Of a DNA stretch of 64,000 bases, positions 18,953 to 54,865 are shown piece by piece (within the stretch, counting starts at the first letter, position 1; each line of letters begins with the position of its first letter). The DNA lies in IMG/VR virus record IMGVR_UViG_3300037483_000793, positions 131,793-195,792 of that record, one strand, 5' to 3'. The translations under genes and the position numbers were made by a program. The notes under the pieces were generated by a model, which had not been told where the DNA came from, made no database searches, and saw only the letters and a list, made by a program, of their open reading frames with translations. The stretch is from a virus.

Positions 18953-19321
18953 GTGAGCACGCTCATCCTCTACATGCTCCTGACGACAGCCCAGTTCTAC
19001 CTGCTGTCGCGGGCCATGATCACGAAATCGTTGTGGTCACGCTACCCGGCGTGGCTCGACTACTACACCTCGTGCGCGGCCTGCTCGGGCTTCCTCTACG
19101 GCGGTGCAGTCGCACTTGCGATCGGATGGACCCAAGACCTACCGTTTTTGGGGCTATCCGGTCGTTTTTGGGTCACACCCATCATTGTCGGGCTGGGATC
19201 TATGGTGTGGACGCCAATTATGGGTGATTTCCACGTACGTGCCCTGTTACAGCTCGGTGTAGCCGGTCCGCGCAGTGATTCATCGACCGATCAACCCGAT
19301 CCACCCCCAGAGAGTGTGTGA
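18953..19321 (+). CDS. small multi-pass membrane protein
   Basis: Three hydrophobic segments; CAAC motif. Confidence 0.6.
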   Translation: MSTLILYMLLTTAQFYLLSRAMITKSLWSRYPAWLDYYTSCAACSGFLYGGAVALAIGWTQDLPFLGLSGRFWVTPIIVGLGSMVWTPIMGDFHVRALLQLGVAGPRSDSSTDQPDPPPESV

Positions 19322-22160: not shown

Positions 22161-24104
22161 ATGGTCAACGTTAACCGCGAGAATCTGGGTCCGGCCGAGC
22201 GCATCATCAACTCGGTCCTTACCTACACCGATCACCTCTATCACGGCCGTCCTGGCATCGTTGTCACGGACGCGCGCACCAACGTCGGTGTGCGGTGGGA
22301 AGCTGTTACGCACAAGATCGAGGACATCAACGGTGTCAAGCGCAAGGTCGTCTACCAGCTCAGCAAGGTCGGCAAGAAGACGATCAAGACGAAGGTCGGC
22401 GTGGTCACTGAAGCTGTCGCAGCGGGTGGTCGTGTCATTCAACATGTGCGCACGGACGCGAGCCCGAACCATCCGATCCTCGGTGAGTACCGCGAGGCAG
22501 GACTGTTCCCCGAGGTCGCGACGTGGATGTACCGCCAGGTCGCCGAAGTCTGGAAGCTCGACAACGAGTTCGCGGCGAAGTGGGCTTCGTACGCATTTGC
22601 TCAGGAGCACCGCGACCTCAAGGTCGTGCTCGCAGCGTTCATGCTCGTGCAGTCACGCAAGGGTGATCCCGTACGTGACGGTGGTGCTGTCGCGTTCTAC
22701 GACGACGACTTCCGTGACATCGGTGAGGCAATGACACTGATCCGTCGCAAGGACGACAAGGATCTGAACCCCAAGCTCCTGCTGCGCATCCGTAGCGTAC
22801 TCGCGCTGCCGGAGATCGCTGCGATCAACAACGAACTGGGCTTCGGTGTGTCGACGCGCAAGCCAGCGTTCGGCCGTTGGCCCAAGGTCGTCGAGAAGTG
22901 GCTGCGTCACCGCGAGGAGAACCCCAAGCTCCTCGAAAGCGGTGTGCGCGCAGGTTTCCGCAAGACAATCATCAAGCTCGCGAAGCACGTCGGCTACAAG
23001 CCAGAGACGGTGAAGTTCTTCGAGACGTTGCGCTGGAAGCAGGCGCAGGCGAACGACGGTCGGCGTCAGCTCATGATCGGTGTCGATCTCGCAAAGGTCG
23101 AGTCGTGGGCTGAGCTAACCGAGATGCAGATCTGCGAGCGCATCGTCAAGGAGAAGCCGGACTGGAAGCGCCTCGTCGGCATGCTGCCCAAGGGCAACAT
23201 CACACGCGCCGTCGTCGCTGCTGCTGTCGAAGCAAAGGCGCTGTCGGAGCGCGATCTCATCATCGCGACACCGACACTGGAAGAGCTGGGTCTGCTCGAC
23301 GTACCTGCGATCAAGGCGGCGTGGGAGAAGGCAATCCAGAACGCAGACAACTCGCGTGCGGCGAACATTGCAAAGAACGTCAACGCGAAGGCGGTCAAGG
23401 ACAAGCTCGTCGAGGCAGCCGACACGGCGATCAAGAAGGCCGTCGAGGAAGTCGTCAAGAACATCCGGGTGTACTTCATGGTCGACATCTCGGGCTCGAT
23501 GAAGAACGCGATCGAGGCCGCGAAGGGCCACATCGCGAAGTTCCTGCAGGGCTTTCCGGTCGACAAGACGCACGTGGCCGTGTTCAACACGACGGGTCGC
23601 GAGATCACGCTCAAGCATGCATCGGCAGTTGGTGTCGAGAACGCGTTTCGCGGCATCACGGCCGGTGGTGGTACGGACTACGGCGCTGGCGTTCGTGCGC
23701 TCATGCATCACAAGCCGAAGGATGACGAAGACGTCCTGTTCATCTTCGTCGGCGATGAGGAAGCACACGCGTTCGATGGCCAGATCACGGCGTCGGGTCT
23801 CAAGCCGTTGGCGTTCGGCTTCGTCAAGACGGTCCCCGATGGCGGTGCTGCAGGTTATCGGCACGCGCAGTTCGGCGGCGAGAACAACATCGCTGTGCGC
23901 GAGACGGCCAAGCGGCTCGGCGTCCCGTGTTTCATGATCGACGAGAAGACGTTCGACGATGTGTACGCGATCCCGCGGACGATTCGGAACCTGATCGCGG
24001 CGACGCCGGTCGGTCCAGCTGCGCGTGCTGTCGCCGCGCCGCGCATGACGTTCGTTGATCAGATCCTGAAGACAGAGCTGTTGCGCAAGCCTGTGTGGGC
24101 CTGA
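22161..24104 (+). CDS. TROVE/Ro60-like helical domain plus C-terminal vWA domain
   Basis: vWA: VYFMVDISGSM...VAVFN...GGGTDY...FIFVGDE. TROVE-like: ASYAFAQEHRDLKVVLA, KWL...IIKLAKHVGYKP, ESWAEL. The vWA call is firm; TROVE is inferred. Confidence 0.7.
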   Translation: MVNVNRENLGPAERIINSVLTYTDHLYHGRPGIVVTDARTNVGVRWEAVTHKIEDINGVKRKVVYQLSKVGKKTIKTKVGVVTEAVAAGGRVIQHVRTDASPNHPILGEYREAGLFPEVATWMYRQVAEVWKLDNEFAAKWASYAFAQEHRDLKVVLAAFMLVQSRKGDPVRDGGAVAFYDDDFRDIGEAMTLIRRKDDKDLNPKLLLRIRSVLALPEIAAINNELGFGVSTRKPAFGRWPKVVEKWLRHREENPKLLESGVRAGFRKTIIKLAKHVGYKPETVKFFETLRWKQAQANDGRRQLMIGVDLAKVESWAELTEMQICERIVKEKPDWKRLVGMLPKGNITRAVVAAAVEAKALSERDLIIATPTLEELGLLDVPAIKAAWEKAIQNADNSRAANIAKNVNAKAVKDKLVEAADTAIKKAVEEVVKNIRVYFMVDISGSMKNAIEAAKGHIAKFLQGFPVDKTHVAVFNTTGREITLKHASAVGVENAFRGITAGGGTDYGAGVRALMHHKPKDDEDVLFIFVGDEEAHAFDGQITASGLKPLAFGFVKTVPDGGAAGYRHAQFGGENNIAVRETAKRLGVPCFMIDEKTFDDVYAIPRTIRNLIAATPVGPAARAVAAPRMTFVDQILKTELLRKPVWA

Positions 24105-24110
24105 TTCGTT

Positions 24111-25061
24111 ATGTCCTGGCGTGAGCTTCTACAGAACGACAACGAGACAATCACGCTGCCGTGGATCGGCAGTCGTGAGCTGCGCTCGTTCTCGCGTAAG
24201 TGGACGATCGCTGGAGATCTGCCACACGAACATGGCTGGTACGTGTTCAAGCTGCTCAAGGGCCGTACCGCGGTCGTCGACAGTGGTCCCGTTGAGCCGC
24301 TGATCACGACGCTCGGGAACGTCTACTTTGGCTATCTCGTCGGTGATCGTTTCGCGACGGGCATCGTCGATCAAGCCGTCGTCACGCAGCCACTTGAAGC
24401 TGCGAAGCGCTTGTCACGTGTGCATTTGATCAACGACGACGTTGACCGCTTTGCGCGTGTCAGCGTTGGCAGTGTCGCGACACGTGGACCGCTGTTCTTT
24501 CGACAGGTCGAGATGCCGCTCGGGCCCGAGGACGATGTCCTGCGTGCATACGAGGACCGTGCTGAGACCATCAACGACATCAAGGGCGTCACGCCTGCAC
24601 TCGACGCCGCGTTTCGGATGGCATTGTGGCAGCGTACCGAAGCTGAACGTCGCCGTGCCGAACTGGAACGGTTGCGCGCCGAAGAAGAAGCGCGACTCGT
24701 GGCTGAGATGAAACGCCAGGAGCTGATCAAGCAGCTCGGTGACGGTGCAGGTCGTCGTGCGATGGCGCAAGTCGACTTCGAGGCTGCTGCACGTGCAGCG
24801 CTCGCAATCGGTGGTGCCGAGCTGCTCGACTGGAAGGCAGTACGCGGCCGTCCCGAGTACACCGTGCGTTATCGCCTGAATCGTCGGCGGTTCGAGTGCG
24901 TCTGCGATGCGAACCTGCACATCATCGATGCGGGGGTGTGCTTGCAGGATCACAGGACGGGAATCAAAGGCGACGATCGATTCACGCTTGAATCGTTGCC
25001 AGGCGTGATTCAACAGGCCGAACGTGAGGACAAGCTCGTCGTGTTCAGGAACGTCGTTTAG
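24111..25061 (+). CDS. putative E2 (UBC-like) conjugating enzyme, C-terminal domain
   Basis: C-terminal DAGVCLQD...RFTLESLPGVIQQA resembles the E2 G-x-[IV]-C-L...TL..L..I motif. Confidence 0.5.
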   Translation: MSWRELLQNDNETITLPWIGSRELRSFSRKWTIAGDLPHEHGWYVFKLLKGRTAVVDSGPVEPLITTLGNVYFGYLVGDRFATGIVDQAVVTQPLEAAKRLSRVHLINDDVDRFARVSVGSVATRGPLFFRQVEMPLGPEDDVLRAYEDRAETINDIKGVTPALDAAFRMALWQRTEAERRRAELERLRAEEEARLVAEMKRQELIKQLGDGAGRRAMAQVDFEAAARAALAIGGAELLDWKAVRGRPEYTVRYRLNRRRFECVCDANLHIIDAGVCLQDHRTGIKGDDRFTLESLPGVIQQAEREDKLVVFRNVV

Positions 25062-25070
25062 GAGTCTACG

Positions 25071-25517
25071 ATGAATGTGAACGGTCTACGTGCCGTGTTG
25101 CGACGCTTCGAGCAGCACCACGACAAAGTCATCTACACCGAAGAACTGCAGTGGTACAACGCGGAGACTGACATCGCGATCACGATCGCGTGTGATCCGC
25201 CTGTGCCTGTGCGTGTCGAAGGAATTTTCGACATTCAAACGATGGACGGTTACACCATCTGCTGTTGGGTGATCCGGATACTCAACGAAGGCAATTTCAA
25301 CAACGTCGAGACGCTTTACGTCAAAGGTCTGAGCAGTGACGAAAACCGCCGACCTGAGTGGCGAAGCGCTGCAGACACCGTTGACGAAAAAAACATACCA
25401 CCGCGTCATCGGATCGATACAGATCCACGCATTGCTACCTCCAAGTGGCGTTACTGGACCGATTCTGACGACAGTGGATGGCGTACGGGCATCGCACCTG
25501 CGGACGAAAGCGAATGA
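25071..25517 (+). CDS. hypothetical protein
   Basis: AGGAG RBS; lower GC than neighbours. Confidence 0.6.
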   Translation: MNVNGLRAVLRRFEQHHDKVIYTEELQWYNAETDIAITIACDPPVPVRVEGIFDIQTMDGYTICCWVIRILNEGNFNNVETLYVKGLSSDENRRPEWRSAADTVDEKNIPPRHRIDTDPRIATSKWRYWTDSDDSGWRTGIAPADESE

Positions 25518-25518
25518 C

Positions 25519-25854
25519 GTGAACGAAGAAGACAAACGTGCTGCTGTACAGGCGTCGCTGAAAGCGGACGCGGCCAAGGTGCGCGCGAAGATTGCACAGC
25601 GCGGTGGGCCGATTTTGTTCGACGCTCTCAAATCGATCGGCGCGACGATGGATCCGATGTGGGAAGGCGAGTGGGAAGGCCCGGTATTGTTCAACGATCC
25701 AAAGGGTGCCTCGCGGATGATTCTCGTTGCGCCGAACGACCACGACGATTTCCTGGCATGGGCCAAGGCACACCCTAACTTCACCGACGAGGAGTTACAG
25801 GATCAGGGTCGTATGCTTCTCGTGCGCATGTGCGCGAGGCCGATCAGTCCGTGA
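25519..25854 (+). CDS. hypothetical protein
   Basis: Probable GTG start after the upstream stop. Confidence 0.55.
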   Translation: MNEEDKRAAVQASLKADAAKVRAKIAQRGGPILFDALKSIGATMDPMWEGEWEGPVLFNDPKGASRMILVAPNDHDDFLAWAKAHPNFTDEELQDQGRMLLVRMCARPISP

Positions 25855-26297
25855 GCGTCGAGTGGACCAGTGAACAAGTCGCGGAGCAATTCCGGCTTGA
25901 AGTGCGTCAAGCGTTCGAGCGTGAGAACGCTGCACATCGCACTGAAGAAGAAGCAGACCTCGAACGCGTGAGAGCAGATCCAGAACACGCTGCGCGTATC
26001 GCACATAATCCACGTTTCGCCGAAGCGCTCGCGGTCCGTGACAGCGTGCTGTGGGAGATCTACAGCGGTGCTGACATTCAAGTCGATTGCAACGCCGTCA
26101 AGGTTGTCCTGCCACGCGGGTTCGCGATCTTCCCGGACCTCATCACGATGTTCGAAGGAACGTCGGTCGGTTGGGGCAACGCGCACGTCGACGCTGAGAT
26201 TGTCAACGGCGAACCGCGCGTCGTCGTCGAGCTGATCTTGATCGACTACTGGGACGATGATCGTGCGGCGAAGTGGATCGCGGAGCATACGCCATGA
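25851..26297 (+). CDS. hypothetical protein
   Basis: GTGA-coupled ORF. Confidence 0.6.
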   Translation: MSVEWTSEQVAEQFRLEVRQAFERENAAHRTEEEADLERVRADPEHAARIAHNPRFAEALAVRDSVLWEIYSGADIQVDCNAVKVVLPRGFAIFPDLITMFEGTSVGWGNAHVDAEIVNGEPRVVVELILIDYWDDDRAAKWIAEHTP

Positions 26298-26503
26298 ACG
26301 TCCAGCTCTATTGCCAGACGTGCGGTGTCGAAGCCAAGCGCGCGTTACTCGACCAGCCGGGATGCCGCGGCGCTCACGAGACCGCGTGCGAACCTGCGTC
26401 GTGCCCCAACGGTCATGGCTTGATGGCGCGGCGCGACGGTGTCGTGCAGGAATTTCTCGATCATGGCTGGGTTGTGACCGGCCGCCTAACAGAGACACGG
26501 TAA
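26294..26503 (+). CDS. small Zn-finger-like protein
   Basis: CQTC...CPNGH; ATGA-coupled. Confidence 0.55.
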   Translation: MNVQLYCQTCGVEAKRALLDQPGCRGAHETACEPASCPNGHGLMARRDGVVQEFLDHGWVVTGRLTETR

Positions 26504-26513
26504 AGGGATCAAC

Positions 26514-27269
26514 ATGACGGCGCCTCGCTACTATTTCGACACGGAATTTCTTGACGACGGTGACAACCAACGCATCGTGCTGATCTCGATCGCACTTGTC
26601 TGCGACGATGGCCGCGAGCTGTATCTCGTGAGCAACGAGTTCGACTACGACGAGGTCAAGCGTGACGACTGGATGCGCGAGAACGTGCTCAAGCAGTTGC
26701 CGCCAACCCTCGACATGACCGTCAGCAGTTTTCCGTACCCGCCCTCGCCGCTGTGGCGTACGCGCGAACAGATTCGTGACGCGATCATCGAGTTCGTGAA
26801 AGACCCCGGCAACGACGAGAAGGTCGAGTTCTGGGCGTTCTTCGCGAGCTACGACTGGGTCCTGTTCGCGCAGCTGTTCGGCAAGATGATCAATATGCCA
26901 AAACACTTCCCGTGGCTCGTCAACGATCTCAAGACGTGGGCCAAACACACGGGCTTCACCGGCAAGTTTAAGGAGCTGCTACCCAACACGGGCCATCACG
27001 ACGCGCTTTGTGACGCGCGCTGGAACCGCGACGTGCACAAGATCCTACTCGAACGGCAACCACTTGCTGCACTCGCCGATGCACTCGTCGATGCAACCGA
27101 AGGCGCGCACGAGGCAACACCGCTAGCGACGGTTCTGCATCTTGGATCAGAGCTGATCCGTGACTACGTGTCGACGAAGGGTCAGCTGCGCGACATCGAG
27201 CAACGCAAAGGGAGTGATCCGATCATCGACGAGATCCTGTCACGGACGAAGGAAGTCGAAATCGTATGA
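26514..27269 (+). CDS. DEDD 3'-5' exoribonuclease (Rv2179c/RNase T-like)
   Basis: YYFDTEF, ISIALV, ASYDW, HDALCDARW. Confidence 0.85.
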   Translation: MTAPRYYFDTEFLDDGDNQRIVLISIALVCDDGRELYLVSNEFDYDEVKRDDWMRENVLKQLPPTLDMTVSSFPYPPSPLWRTREQIRDAIIEFVKDPGNDEKVEFWAFFASYDWVLFAQLFGKMINMPKHFPWLVNDLKTWAKHTGFTGKFKELLPNTGHHDALCDARWNRDVHKILLERQPLAALADALVDATEGAHEATPLATVLHLGSELIRDYVSTKGQLRDIEQRKGSDPIIDEILSRTKEVEIV

Positions 27270-27655
27270 GTCCATCGAAGTACATCCTGCCGAAGAACAT
27301 CGTTGCGCTCGCGCGCGATGCAATCAACGACGAGAATGTCGCGACCCGTCAGCGCGAGTGGCGCGCGTTCGCGCGCGAGAAACACCTCGCCAAGCGCGTG
27401 CTCGACGACGATAAGGCCAAGCGCAAGCTGCGCGAGCGTGTCCGGGCACTGGAAGAGGGCCTGGTGCGCGCGTGTGACCTCGCGATCGATTCAGCGGACG
27501 TGATCGATAGCGAGAACATCGCTGACCCTGAAGAGAGCGAGGATTTCCGGTACAGCGTCGGCAAGATTCGCACACTCGTGAAGCGGCCTGAAGCTGCACG
27601 TCACGTGATGCGCAAACTACAGGAGCAGGAAGCAGCTGCTCAGGTGACGCCGTGA
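27266..27655 (+). CDS. hypothetical coiled-coil protein
   Basis: Coupled ORF. Confidence 0.55.
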   Translation: MSPSKYILPKNIVALARDAINDENVATRQREWRAFAREKHLAKRVLDDDKAKRKLRERVRALEEGLVRACDLAIDSADVIDSENIADPEESEDFRYSVGKIRTLVKRPEAARHVMRKLQEQEAAAQVTP

Positions 27656-27936
27656 ACGCGTACGATCCAAAAAACGCGTACACGATCGGCGCGCTGCTTC
27701 GCTACGTACAACACAAATACGACTGCGACTGGTTACAGCCGATGTGGCACAAGGGTCCATGCGACTGCGGACTCACGGCGCTGATCCAACAGCTGCCTGA
27801 AGATTTGCTGAAGCTGCTCGTCGAAACGAACGATCACGTGCGTGCAACCGTCGAAGAGATCAAACAACGCGAAGAGCGAGCCGAACGTGAAGCGCGTGAA
27901 GCGGTCGCACAGCGATTCCAGCAGGAGCCTAAATGA
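27652..27936 (+). CDS. hypothetical protein
   Basis: Coupled ORF; H..C.W....H...CDC motif. Confidence 0.55.
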   Translation: MNAYDPKNAYTIGALLRYVQHKYDCDWLQPMWHKGPCDCGLTALIQQLPEDLLKLLVETNDHVRATVEEIKQREERAEREAREAVAQRFQQEPK

Positions 27937-28346
27937 TCGAGACCGGCGTCGTCATCAACACCAACGGTGAGCCCATCCACTGGCATGAACCTGCAGGACG
28001 CTCGGGCGGTAACTTGCCCGATAGCCGCTCGCTGTGGGATGTGCTGTGGCAGGCGCAACAGCACGGCTGGCTCGCAGGCTTCGCACATACGCATCCGGGC
28101 AGCGGTGTTCCCGGTCCATCGAGCACGGACATCTCGACGTTCGTCGCGATCGAGAACGCGCTCGGTCGGTCACTCGCGTGGTGGATCGCGAGCGCCGATC
28201 GGATGGTGATCACGCGTCGGTCGGTGATGGACAGCGTTCCTGGCCGCGAGATTTACGCTTCGCATGAGATCGTGGTACAGAACGAACCGATCTGGGTCGC
28301 CGAACTTCGTCGGCGCTCAGCGATGGGCGTGCACCCGTATCGGTGA
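27933..28346 (+). CDS. JAB/MPN+ metalloisopeptidase (DUB-like)
   Basis: N-terminal IE; FAHTHPGSGVPGPSSTD matches HxHx7Sx2D. Confidence 0.8.
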   Translation: MIETGVVINTNGEPIHWHEPAGRSGGNLPDSRSLWDVLWQAQQHGWLAGFAHTHPGSGVPGPSSTDISTFVAIENALGRSLAWWIASADRMVITRRSVMDSVPGREIYASHEIVVQNEPIWVAELRRRSAMGVHPYR

Positions 28347-28363
28347 TCCCGGCTGCGACATAA

Positions 28364-28395
28364 CTCTTGACTTGCCGGGCACGCATCGTTAGGGT
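28364..28395 (+). promoter_or_regulatory. sigma70-like promoter of the Ubl gene
   Basis: TTGACT (28367)-N17-TAGGGT (28390). Confidence 0.7.
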
Positions 28396-28416
28396 CAAGA
28401 TTCTTAGGAGAATGCC

Positions 28417-28740
28417 ATGGCCGACAACGAGATGGTTCGTGTGATTCGAGACGACGAGGCCCGCGTGAACGTTACGTGGAAGCAGCAGAACGGCGAGCTG
28501 CCGGATCCGGTGTTCCGTGACGCGACCGAGGGCGATGTCCGTGCGTGGGTGACCGAGGCGGTCCGCAACGGTGGCGTGCCCGGCATCCCGGCCGACGCTG
28601 ACGCCGACTTCCGCGACTTCGTCGTGGATCGCTTCCCGCCGACCGAAGCGCGGCAGTACAACCTGATCCAGGTCCGTCCGAAGACGGCGTTCGGCATGGG
28701 CGGCCCGTGCATCTGCTCGCGCTGTGGGAACGCACACTAA
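28417..28740 (+). CDS. putative ubiquitin-like (beta-grasp) protein with C-terminal extension
   Basis: ARVNVTW...ELPDPV...LIQVRPKTAFG-MGG-PCICSRCGNAH; adjacent to JAB; AGGAG RBS. Confidence 0.55.
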   Translation: MADNEMVRVIRDDEARVNVTWKQQNGELPDPVFRDATEGDVRAWVTEAVRNGGVPGIPADADADFRDFVVDRFPPTEARQYNLIQVRPKTAFGMGGPCICSRCGNAH

Positions 28741-28839
28741 CTCCATGACGTGGTCGCACGCTGCGGGCATTGCCGTCGGTATGATGATCTTGCAGTACAT
28801 CGAACTCGTGCGTATCCGTCGTACGCTGAAAGGAAAGTA

Positions 28840-52461: not shown

Positions 52462-53113
52462 GTGCACTTAGTGCCCTTGCCTAGCCACGCCTGACCCTGC
52501 CGCGCCCGGCATCGCCTGGCCTAGCCCTGCCCTGTAACTGTCGAGTGCACTTAGTGCCCTTGCCCTGCCTAGCCCCGCCGCGCCATGCCATGCCCCGCCT
52601 AGCTCTGCCACGCCGAGCCGCGTTGAATCGTTGATGTGCACTTAGTGCCCATGCCTCGCCATGCCTCGCCATGCTGTGCCATGCCGGGCCTTGCCCAGCC
52701 GCGCCGCGCCGCGAGAAATCATCGTGCACTTTAGTGCCCTCGCCACACCTCGCCGTGCACCGCCCAGCCTAGCCGCACCACACCAAGCCGCGTGAAAATG
52801 TCGGTGCGCACTTAGTGCCCTTGCCCTGCCTGGCCTGACCGCGCCGCGCCGCGCAATGCCCCGCCGCGCCCCGCCCGACCGCGAAAATCGTTGTGATGCA
52901 CTTTAGTGCCCTTGCCATGCCAAACCGGGCCTGACCCAGCCACGCCAGGCCTTGCCACGCCAGGCCTAGCCGAACCCCGCCCCGCCTTGCCTGGCCGCGC
53001 CGCGCCTCGCCCTGTGAAATGTTGCGGCGCACTTAGTGCCCTTGCCCAGCCGGACCGCGCCGTGCCGTGCCCAGCCCAGCCCTGCCCAGCCGCGCCCAGC
53101 ACTGCCGCGCCGA
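52462..53113 (-). ncRNA. array of seven GGY-NN pentamer guide-like RNA units with 3' hairpin (VIPR-like)
   Basis: Units with 14, 20, 12, 10, 12, 12 and 11 phased triplets, each ending NN-GGGCAC-TAA(A)-GTGC. Confidence 0.9.
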
Positions 53114-53115
53114 AA

Positions 53116-53619
53116 CTACTGATCATCGTTTTCGTCACCGGCACGAAGCGGATGCACGACAGGTCCGAACCGCACCGAGATCGCTTTACGATCAGCTTGC
53201 GCTGTTACCAGTGTCGCGTGCATGCGACGTGTCGCGTGTTCGGTCTTGACCTGCTCTCGCGGTGTCAGTTGCTCGACCGGCACACGACGAATCCGCGACA
53301 CGGATTTCCCGATGCGGCGAACGCCGCGACGGAAGTCTCGTACGCTGACTGTCACACGCTCAAATTGTTCGAGCACGCGCAAACCGACACTTGGTACAGC
53401 TTCCATGTCGATGTTCTGTTCGTTCAAGAGCCGACGACGCCACGCAGTGACAATCGTCTTGTAGCGCGATGTGCCGGGCTTGACCTGGATGGTGTTCTCG
53501 ATGTCGGTGTGCGTGATCACGTTACCTGCTTTGAGGTTCGTGAACGTCGTGAGGAGCTTCTTGACGTCGGGTTCGGTCGGGACACCACTGGAAAAAATCG
53601 TCGTCGCTGCCATCGTCAT
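53116..53619 (-). CDS. accessory protein embedded in the array (possibly winged-helix nucleic-acid binding)
   Basis: 167 aa from ATG 53619 with AAAGG RBS; VITHTDIENTI...AWRRRLLNE...VPSVGLRVL. Confidence 0.75.
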   Translation of the reverse strand: MTMAATTIFSSGVPTEPDVKKLLTTFTNLKAGNVITHTDIENTIQVKPGTSRYKTIVTAWRRRLLNEQNIDMEAVPSVGLRVLEQFERVTVSVRDFRRGVRRIGKSVSRIRRVPVEQLTPREQVKTEHATRRMHATLVTAQADRKAISVRFGPVVHPLRAGDENDDQ

Positions 53620-53631
53620 TGCCTTTCGATT

Positions 53632-53819
53632 GTACTTAGTACCCTTGCCCCGCCGTGCCGTACCCGACCCTGCCCGGCCGCGACCAGCCGTACCGCGCCC
53701 GGCCGAGCCGAGCCGTGCCAAAATTATGTCGAGAGTGTGTTGCGTGACGCACGTTAGTGCCCTTGTCCGGCCTTGCCCCGCCACGCCTAGCCGGGCCATG
53801 CCCTGCCATGCCCCGCCAT
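53632..53819 (-). ncRNA. two further GGY-NN units directly after the RAMP gene stop
   Basis: 11 and 15 triplets; hairpins GCAC-TAAC-GTGC and GTAC-TAA-GTAC. Confidence 0.9.
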
Positions 53820-53823
53820 AAAC

Positions 53824-54498
53824 CTAGATCTCTTTGATCGACTGGACGTCGAACGTACCGAAGCGTCCGGGCGTCGGACTGCTCGGACGCCAGTCGCCGA
53901 GGCCCTTGTAGCGACCGGCATACTCCAGAATCGAACCGAGAATCCCTTCGGTGATCTGGTCGTCGATCACCATGAGCACGCCCTTCAGGGACCAGTTGGT
54001 GAACTTCGGACGAACGCGGATGTGCTTGCTGTTGCCGATCTTCGCGCGTTTCGTGAACAGCGTGAACCCGTTCGCGTGCGCCATCGCGATGTGCTTCTGG
54101 AAATCCAGATTCGATGCCAGCCCGACGACGAACGGTTTGACGTCGATCGGCTTGTTCTTCACGTGCAGGATCCAGTGTTCTTCTTCGCACTGGATACCGC
54201 TCTGTGACTGCGACTTGAACGTCTTGCCGTTCTTGCCACCAGGTACGGGAACTTGAGCGCCGCCTTCCATGATGCAGCGCATGATGTTCAGCTCGGGCAT
54301 CGTGATGTGTTCACCGTCGTGATACAGCGAACCCAGCCACGAGAACGCTGGGGCACGATCGTCACCGGGCGCGCTGAGCTTCTTGTTGGCGGGGTTGGTC
54401 TGCCAGGCCTTGAGTTGATCGGCAGCTTCGATGTTGTCGTGGTGCATCAGCAGCGGTTGAACACCTTCGAGCTTCACTTCGTAACGACGAACCGGCAT
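53824..54498 (-). CDS. stand-alone Cas7/RAMP-like RNA-binding protein (Vipr-like)
   Basis: 224 aa from ATG 54498 (AAGGAAG RBS); YEVKLEGVQPLLMH, ITMPELNIMRCI, HIRVRPKF..W, C-terminal Gly loop GLGDWRP...GRFGTF. Confidence 0.8.
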   Translation of the reverse strand: MPVRRYEVKLEGVQPLLMHHDNIEAADQLKAWQTNPANKKLSAPGDDRAPAFSWLGSLYHDGEHITMPELNIMRCIMEGGAQVPVPGGKNGKTFKSQSQSGIQCEEEHWILHVKNKPIDVKPFVVGLASNLDFQKHIAMAHANGFTLFTKRAKIGNSKHIRVRPKFTNWSLKGVLMVIDDQITEGILGSILEYAGRYKGLGDWRPSSPTPGRFGTFDVQSIKEI

Positions 54499-54565: not shown

Positions 54566-54598
54566 AACATAATCATGCCGTAGACCGCAAGTCAAGAG
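54566..54598 (-). promoter_or_regulatory. sigma70-like promoter of the RAMP/array operon
   Basis: Minus strand CTCTTGACT-N18-TATGTT. Confidence 0.6.
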
Positions 54599-54628: not shown

Positions 54629-54865
54629 TCACCGTACGCGCGCCACGGGCAGCAGCACGCCGCGACCCTTGTCCGTGATCTTGTACCGCCGCCGGAGCGT
54701 GACGCGCTCCTCGACGCCTTCGACGAAGCCTGCTTCTTCGAGCCACGCCATGTGAACGAAGATCGAGTAGCGCGAGCCGACACCTGCGTTGATCATGTCG
54801 AGCCCGTAGACTGGCGCAGGTTGCTGCCCGAGGAATTCGAGAATCCGGCGACGTGTCGTGTTCAC
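54629..54865 (-). CDS. PadR-like winged-helix regulator
   Basis: ILEFL...YGLDM...YSIFVHMAWLEEAGFV...RRRYKITDKG. Confidence 0.75.
   Translation of the reverse strand: MNTTRRRILEFLGQQPAPVYGLDMINAGVGSRYSIFVHMAWLEEAGFVEGVEERVTLRRRYKITDKGRGVLLPVARVR

Follow-up and report, generated by a model that had tools for sequence, protein, structure and literature searches.

A complete VIPR locus of type II-like build, with nine hairpin-tailed guides, in a large high-GC virus

The window analysed here, 64 kb long, forms the end of a 195,792-base (~196-kb) virus record with a genomic GC content of 62%. It carries on its minus strand a complete VIPR system, the CRISPR-like gene-silencing tool of viruses described in 2026 (bioRxiv 10.64898/2026.04.26.720920). 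The system consists of vipr, a vap1-family gene and nine hairpin-tailed guides, arranged in the order vipr, guides A and B, vap, and guides C–I (Table 1), and past guide I the array ends where the next gene begins. A small PadR-like winged-helix gene (54629-54865, minus strand; below the Pfam cut-off), which is a possible regulator, lies immediately upstream of the promoter candidate listed for vipr.

Table 1. Position of the genes, guides and other features of the VIPR locus within the window
Feature	Coordinates	Strand	Details
vap, 165 aa, vap1 family	53116..53613	-	phrog_5926, E=4e-8
Guide A	53763..53817	-	11 pentamers
Guide B	53645..53719	-	15 pentamers; 14/14 variable dinucleotides end in G/C
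Guide C	53042..53111	-	14 pentamers; 13/13 variable dinucleotides end in G/C
Guide D	52912..53011	-	20 pentamers
Guide E	52821..52880	-	12 pentamers
Guide F	52740..52789	-	10 pentamers
Guide G	52651..52710	-	12 pentamers
Guide H	52560..52619	-	12 pentamers
Guide I	52477..52531	-	11 pentamers
Constant 3' tail of guide I	52462..52476	-	4-bp hairpin common to all guides
vipr, 224 aa RAMP (Cas7-like) protein	53824..54498	-	phmmer, AF2, Foldseek, PHROG
sigma70-like promoter candidate, upstream of vipr	54566..54595	-	9/12 consensus match; 0.6 expected by chance; weak

The vipr product matches the Vipr of phage SUSP1 (PDB 36pp_D) with an E-value of 5e-11 in phmmer, and falls in phrog_4652, the same family as the Felixounavirus Vipr, to which it is ~28% identical. 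Its AF2 model, folded with an alignment, has a pLDDT of 94, and the best Foldseek matches of this model are Cas7/Csm3 proteins (E about 1e-5); the protein is a stand-alone RAMP displaying an RRM core, a thumb and a G-loop. Residues H19, R163 and D202-W203-R204 align with H17, R138 and D177-W178-R179 of SUSP1 Vipr, which are the GGY-binding residues according to the structure paper (PDB 36pp), and they are invariant across 120 homologues. The closest relative found, whose Vipr is 70% identical, displays the same gene order and layout with different NN dinucleotides; the Vipr tree made here covers near relatives only. As for the neighbouring gene, vap, which has 1039 relatives, its family was assigned by profile only: phrog_5926 is the family of the gene adjoining vipr in Felixounavirus phages, and a direct BLASTP comparison of vap with the Felixounavirus vap gave no alignment.

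The first-pass annotation of this DNA had decoded nine strings of NN dinucleotides, A–I, all of which were reproduced exactly by an independent parse of the minus strand. The parse yielded nine tracts of 10–20 GGY-NN pentamers, each with the same short hairpin tail at its 3' end; the four pairs of the hairpin are kept in 9/9 tails, with one compensatory change, in guide B. Guide C has one optional extra 5' pentamer (53112-53116), which had been left uncounted. The dinucleotide AA terminates seven of the nine units and closes 84 of the arrays parsed for this Vipr family, many more than any other dinucleotide does; it probably belongs to the constant tail, and its omission from the decoded strings was reasonable. 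One or two imperfect GGY triplets are found in eight of the nine units, and such units are common across related arrays. The 196-kb genome contains no further GGY-NN array and no further copy of the tail.

An open frame (53116-53799) runs through guide B into vap, as might be the case if, instead of being guides, the tracts were a simple repeat, part of an extended vap coding region or a product of misassembly. We regard such an origin as extremely improbable: the tracts combine a period of 5 with hypervariable NN, their tails are constant, vipr adjoins them, and the same layout recurs in dozens of related loci. Furthermore, the flanking proteins recur unchanged in a separate assembly, where the genes are also spaced by the same 210 and 654 bases, so that the array is not an assembly artefact. 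The locus is also present in Logan run SRR12684493, and a protein identical to a neighbouring one in JGI 3300037484.

Judging from gene content and sequence, the build of the system is type II-like. As in the type II VIPR of Escherichia phage SUSP1 and of a Pseudomonas fulva prophage (bioRxiv 10.64898/2026.04.26.720920, 10.64898/2026.04.26.720927; PDB 36pp), Vipr has the same G-loop and thumb residues, its neighbour belongs to the vap1 family, and tailed GGY-NN guides, mostly of 10–15 units, lie beside the genes and have no self-target. The locus differs from these systems in several respects: (i) it has nine guides instead of four; (ii) two guides lie between vipr and vap, and none upstream; (iii) one guide, D, has 20 units, all with a perfect GGY, compared to a usual published range of 9–16 (related loci reach 25–29); (iv) the tail is a short 4-bp hairpin; (v) the carrier is a large high-GC virus, of a family unlike that of SUSP1. 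The Cas7/Csm3 backbones of Class 1 CRISPR systems have the same RAMP fold as Vipr, but the guide code is here non-contiguous, and there is no CRISPR repeat-spacer array at the locus.

The best explanation of the locus, and very probably the right one, is a type II-like VIPR in which Vipr filaments formed on the guides silence non-self targets; filament assembly and silencing are taken from the literature, while we infer expression, the identity of the targets and the codon phase of guides B and C. Vipr subunits would polymerise along each guide RNA, one per GGY-NN unit, so that the GGY would be hidden by Vipr and the NN pairs shown to double-stranded DNA. With one target base skipped after each pair, a guide would read 30–57 bp, and transcription would be silenced at the bound gapped site with help from Vap. 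The targets would lie outside this virus, in a satellite, a co-infecting or rival virus or another element of the same host.

The one-base skip has been reported on the basis of searches as well as of binding and reporter assays, the skipped bases being 'overwhelmingly' at the wobble position (bioRxiv 10.64898/2026.04.26.720920). The argument that such skipping makes synonymous escape useless was made in this discovery preprint and in a later one (bioRxiv 10.64898/2026.10.15.759431), in which nearly 90% of orphan guides are wobble-aligned, targets are identified and tested, and satellite restriction is described. The skip that the first-pass annotation had applied is this published rule, and neither the rule nor the wobble-escape logic is new.

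The rule also held for a related guide of the same Vipr clade, used as a positive control. Guide 5 of a Pseudorhodoferax prophage VIPR (L122:3880-3939; Vipr 53% identical) matches one small conserved ORF with 22, 22, 21 and 21 of 22 letters in four of the 301 genomes of its family (L276, L277, L278 and L280), as against 0 matches for the reversed pattern among the same 301 genomes. This ORF runs on the opposite strand, and it is the wobble position of its codons that is skipped. The published one-base-skip rule thus holds in this Vipr clade. The control ORF is unannotated and contains the motif QHWRSHPGQ. A fifth match of the control guide, 20/22 and located elsewhere, looks like chance.

The first-pass annotation had proposed comparing matches of the gapped patterns with those of shuffled controls; this comparison yielded no target for any of the nine guides in the collections searched. 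In the virus's own genome, with skips of 0–3 and in both antiparallel and parallel orientation, the best guide scores were within the shuffled range, i.e. there was no self-target. Nothing rose clearly above the shuffles in 22 related VIPR loci, nor in 15 related virus records (1.4 Mb) retrieved via their capsid-like gene, where the best score of guide B was 23/28 and the shuffle maximum 23–24. Exact seeds searched against IMG/VR gave 0 matches for guide D (20 letters) and guide B (18 letters), eight for guide C (18 letters), extending to only 19–21/30, and 88 for guide G (16 letters), four for guide H and two for guide A, none of which extended. Note that 40 of the guide G matches represent a single motif of virus contigs with a low GC content (about 30%), where the nine 3' pairs match and the three 5' pairs do not, and were put down to chance. 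In JGI metagenomes, a 22-letter seed of guide B gave 0 matches and an 18-letter seed of guide D nine, none of which extended; guide B gave 0 matches in five genomes with 3 mismatches allowed. Peptides guessed from guide D retrieved nothing meaningful from INPHARED or from a protein collection, a test weakened by ambiguous residues. Guide B nearly matches a gene next to the one for the capsid-like protein (21-22/28), and guide I a Dam-type methylase (15/20); both near-matches were rejected, as neither improved in homologues. Guides E, F and I went through local searches only, and the single GTDB-wide scan served for Vipr loci. Since the seed scans demand a perfect run of 16–22 letters, with one seed for most guides, the absence of targets is that of a thin search and does not amount to a refutation.

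That no match turned up in any collection searched, and that eight of the nine units have one or two imperfect GGY triplets, is what would be expected if the guides were drifting or out of date and lacked any target today. Yet vipr and vap are intact, the tails show conservation that includes a compensatory change, imperfect GGY triplets are common in these arrays, with 'internal degeneracy' also reported in bioRxiv 10.64898/2026.04.26.720920, and the collections searched sample this habitat thinly; altogether, we deem outdated guides unlikely. If Vipr filaments do silence non-self targets, the genes concerned most likely belong to a mobile element that shares the high-GC host, such as a satellite or a co-infecting virus, and that is absent from the collections searched.

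Guides B and C display a genuine asymmetry: the second base is G or C in all 27 variable dinucleotides, versus 10/27 for the first base (Fisher p=3.6e-7), and two all-G/C guides are obtained with p=1e-4 upon shuffling of the dinucleotides among the nine guides. For comparison, the second base is G or C in 51% of cases in 132 guides of related loci, the longest run being 11. The other seven guides are unbiased (G/C in 39/83 second bases and 47/83 first bases), and a uniform model mostly fits them about as well as any codon phase; codon phasing thus holds for guides B and C only. A read-out with any period other than a multiple of three would move from one codon position to the next and not produce the asymmetry, which thus indicates, with no need for a target, that these two guides sample high-GC coding DNA with a period of 3. 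In this respect, the first-pass proposal of a fixed codon phase within a high-GC ORF is supported for B and C.

The same cannot be said of the further step, by which the 27/27 G/C endings and the 'protein-like strings' read from them were taken to point to wobble skipping, since such runs are about 12-fold commoner if the wobble base is read. Among windows of 13–14 dinucleotides from a set of high-GC bacterial genes, 17–20% are all-G/C when codon position 3 is read, compared to 1.2–1.6% in the phase of the first-pass annotation; the corresponding values for genes of this virus family are 6–7% and 0.5–0.7%. The posterior for wobble skipping is 0.025 for guide B and 0.05–0.07 for guide C with equal priors, and 0.31 and 0.47–0.57, respectively, with a 90% prior. 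As for the 'protein-like' strings, they resemble antisense shadow frames: by inspection, at least three of six independent chance matches of guide C have a plausible gene on the other strand. However, the phase model gave the true wobble-skip phase of the control guide only 0.03–0.05, presumably because the motifs at which guides are aimed are unusual in composition. Because the model misjudged the control guide, the codon phase of B and C is left near even: to skip codon position 3 on the antisense strand and to read position 3 are about equally likely.

We lean slightly towards B and C being ordinary wobble-skipping guides on the antisense strand, as the first-pass annotation had it, with target stretches in which V, R, L, A, Q and E, the codons of which start with G or C, are frequent, e.g. 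helical or coiled-coil segments. This is what the published prior of near 90% wobble-aligned guides (bioRxiv 10.64898/2026.10.15.759431) favours, and the true target of the control guide had this phase despite its low model value. In addition, guides B and C (53645-53699 and 53067-53111) share 13/18 letters in one register, with conservative residue changes when read in this phase (p=0.03, uncorrected for the 36 pairs); the two guides may be directed at related sites or have arisen by duplication. The rarity of all-G/C runs of this length in this phase and the posteriors obtained even with the 90% prior speak against wobble skipping.

The other possibility, to which we give somewhat less than an even chance, is that B and C read the wobble base, through codon positions 2–3 in the sense orientation (or 3–1 in the antisense one). 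They would then be exceptions, out of phase with the wobble-aligned guides of bioRxiv 10.64898/2026.10.15.759431, and tolerable if the target cannot gain by escape, as with a high-GC host gene. With flat priors, the posterior on sense 2–3 is about 0.75–0.8 for B and 0.4–0.7 for C, most of the remainder being antisense 3–1; the dinucleotides are favoured codon endings in high-GC genes; and most chance matches of guide C fell in this phase. These posteriors, however, come from the model that misassigned the control guide, and no target has been found; with about 10% of published guides already not wobble-aligned, an exception would have precedent. A bolder reading, which seems to us improbable, has B and C reading the wobble base and acting against the high-GC host itself by silencing, for instance, its defence genes; if true, VIPR would serve a large virus as a programmable knock-down of host genes in addition to its use against rival elements.

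The VIPR module is patchy in this virus group. The three closest relatives (G006, rated 100% complete, and the fragments G013 and G020), the capsid-like protein of which is 90–93% identical, lack both a Vipr match and GGY-NN arrays. A divergent Vipr match (E about 1e-8) is seen in four capsid-related viruses (G007, G008, G009 and G016), and many NGY-NN tracts, often with a short CCAAGG tail, are dispersed over tens of kb in G007 (31700-51800), G008 (87500-119700) and G009 (23500-32300); G018 has one such tract (at 19200) and no Vipr match. These tracts fit the published YNNNG variant, and no target was found for those of G007, G008, G009 and G018 within the virus family.

Guide 1 of the closest VIPR relative (L002:2944-3008) matches position 145875 of the present genome (G000; 14083 in the window) with 20/24 letters and the wobble base skipped. 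The site is conserved in a gene of this virus group, being also present in G013 and G020, and is a lead only, with p about 0.1 against shuffles. In the closely related viruses L006-L020, the guide adjoining vipr is nearly constant while the other guides vary, which makes their arrays a good set for a study of guide turnover.

Given that the skip rule and the wobble-escape logic were already published, the advance is small as long as no target is at hand. What the locus adds is a complete, guide-rich VIPR from a family of large viruses, high in GC and far removed from the coliphages characterised so far. With a second VIPR, of divergent sequence, in four relatives, this family has the look of an arena for RNA-guided conflict, and the nine guide queries could name the satellite, rival or host of this virus once they are run against its sample.
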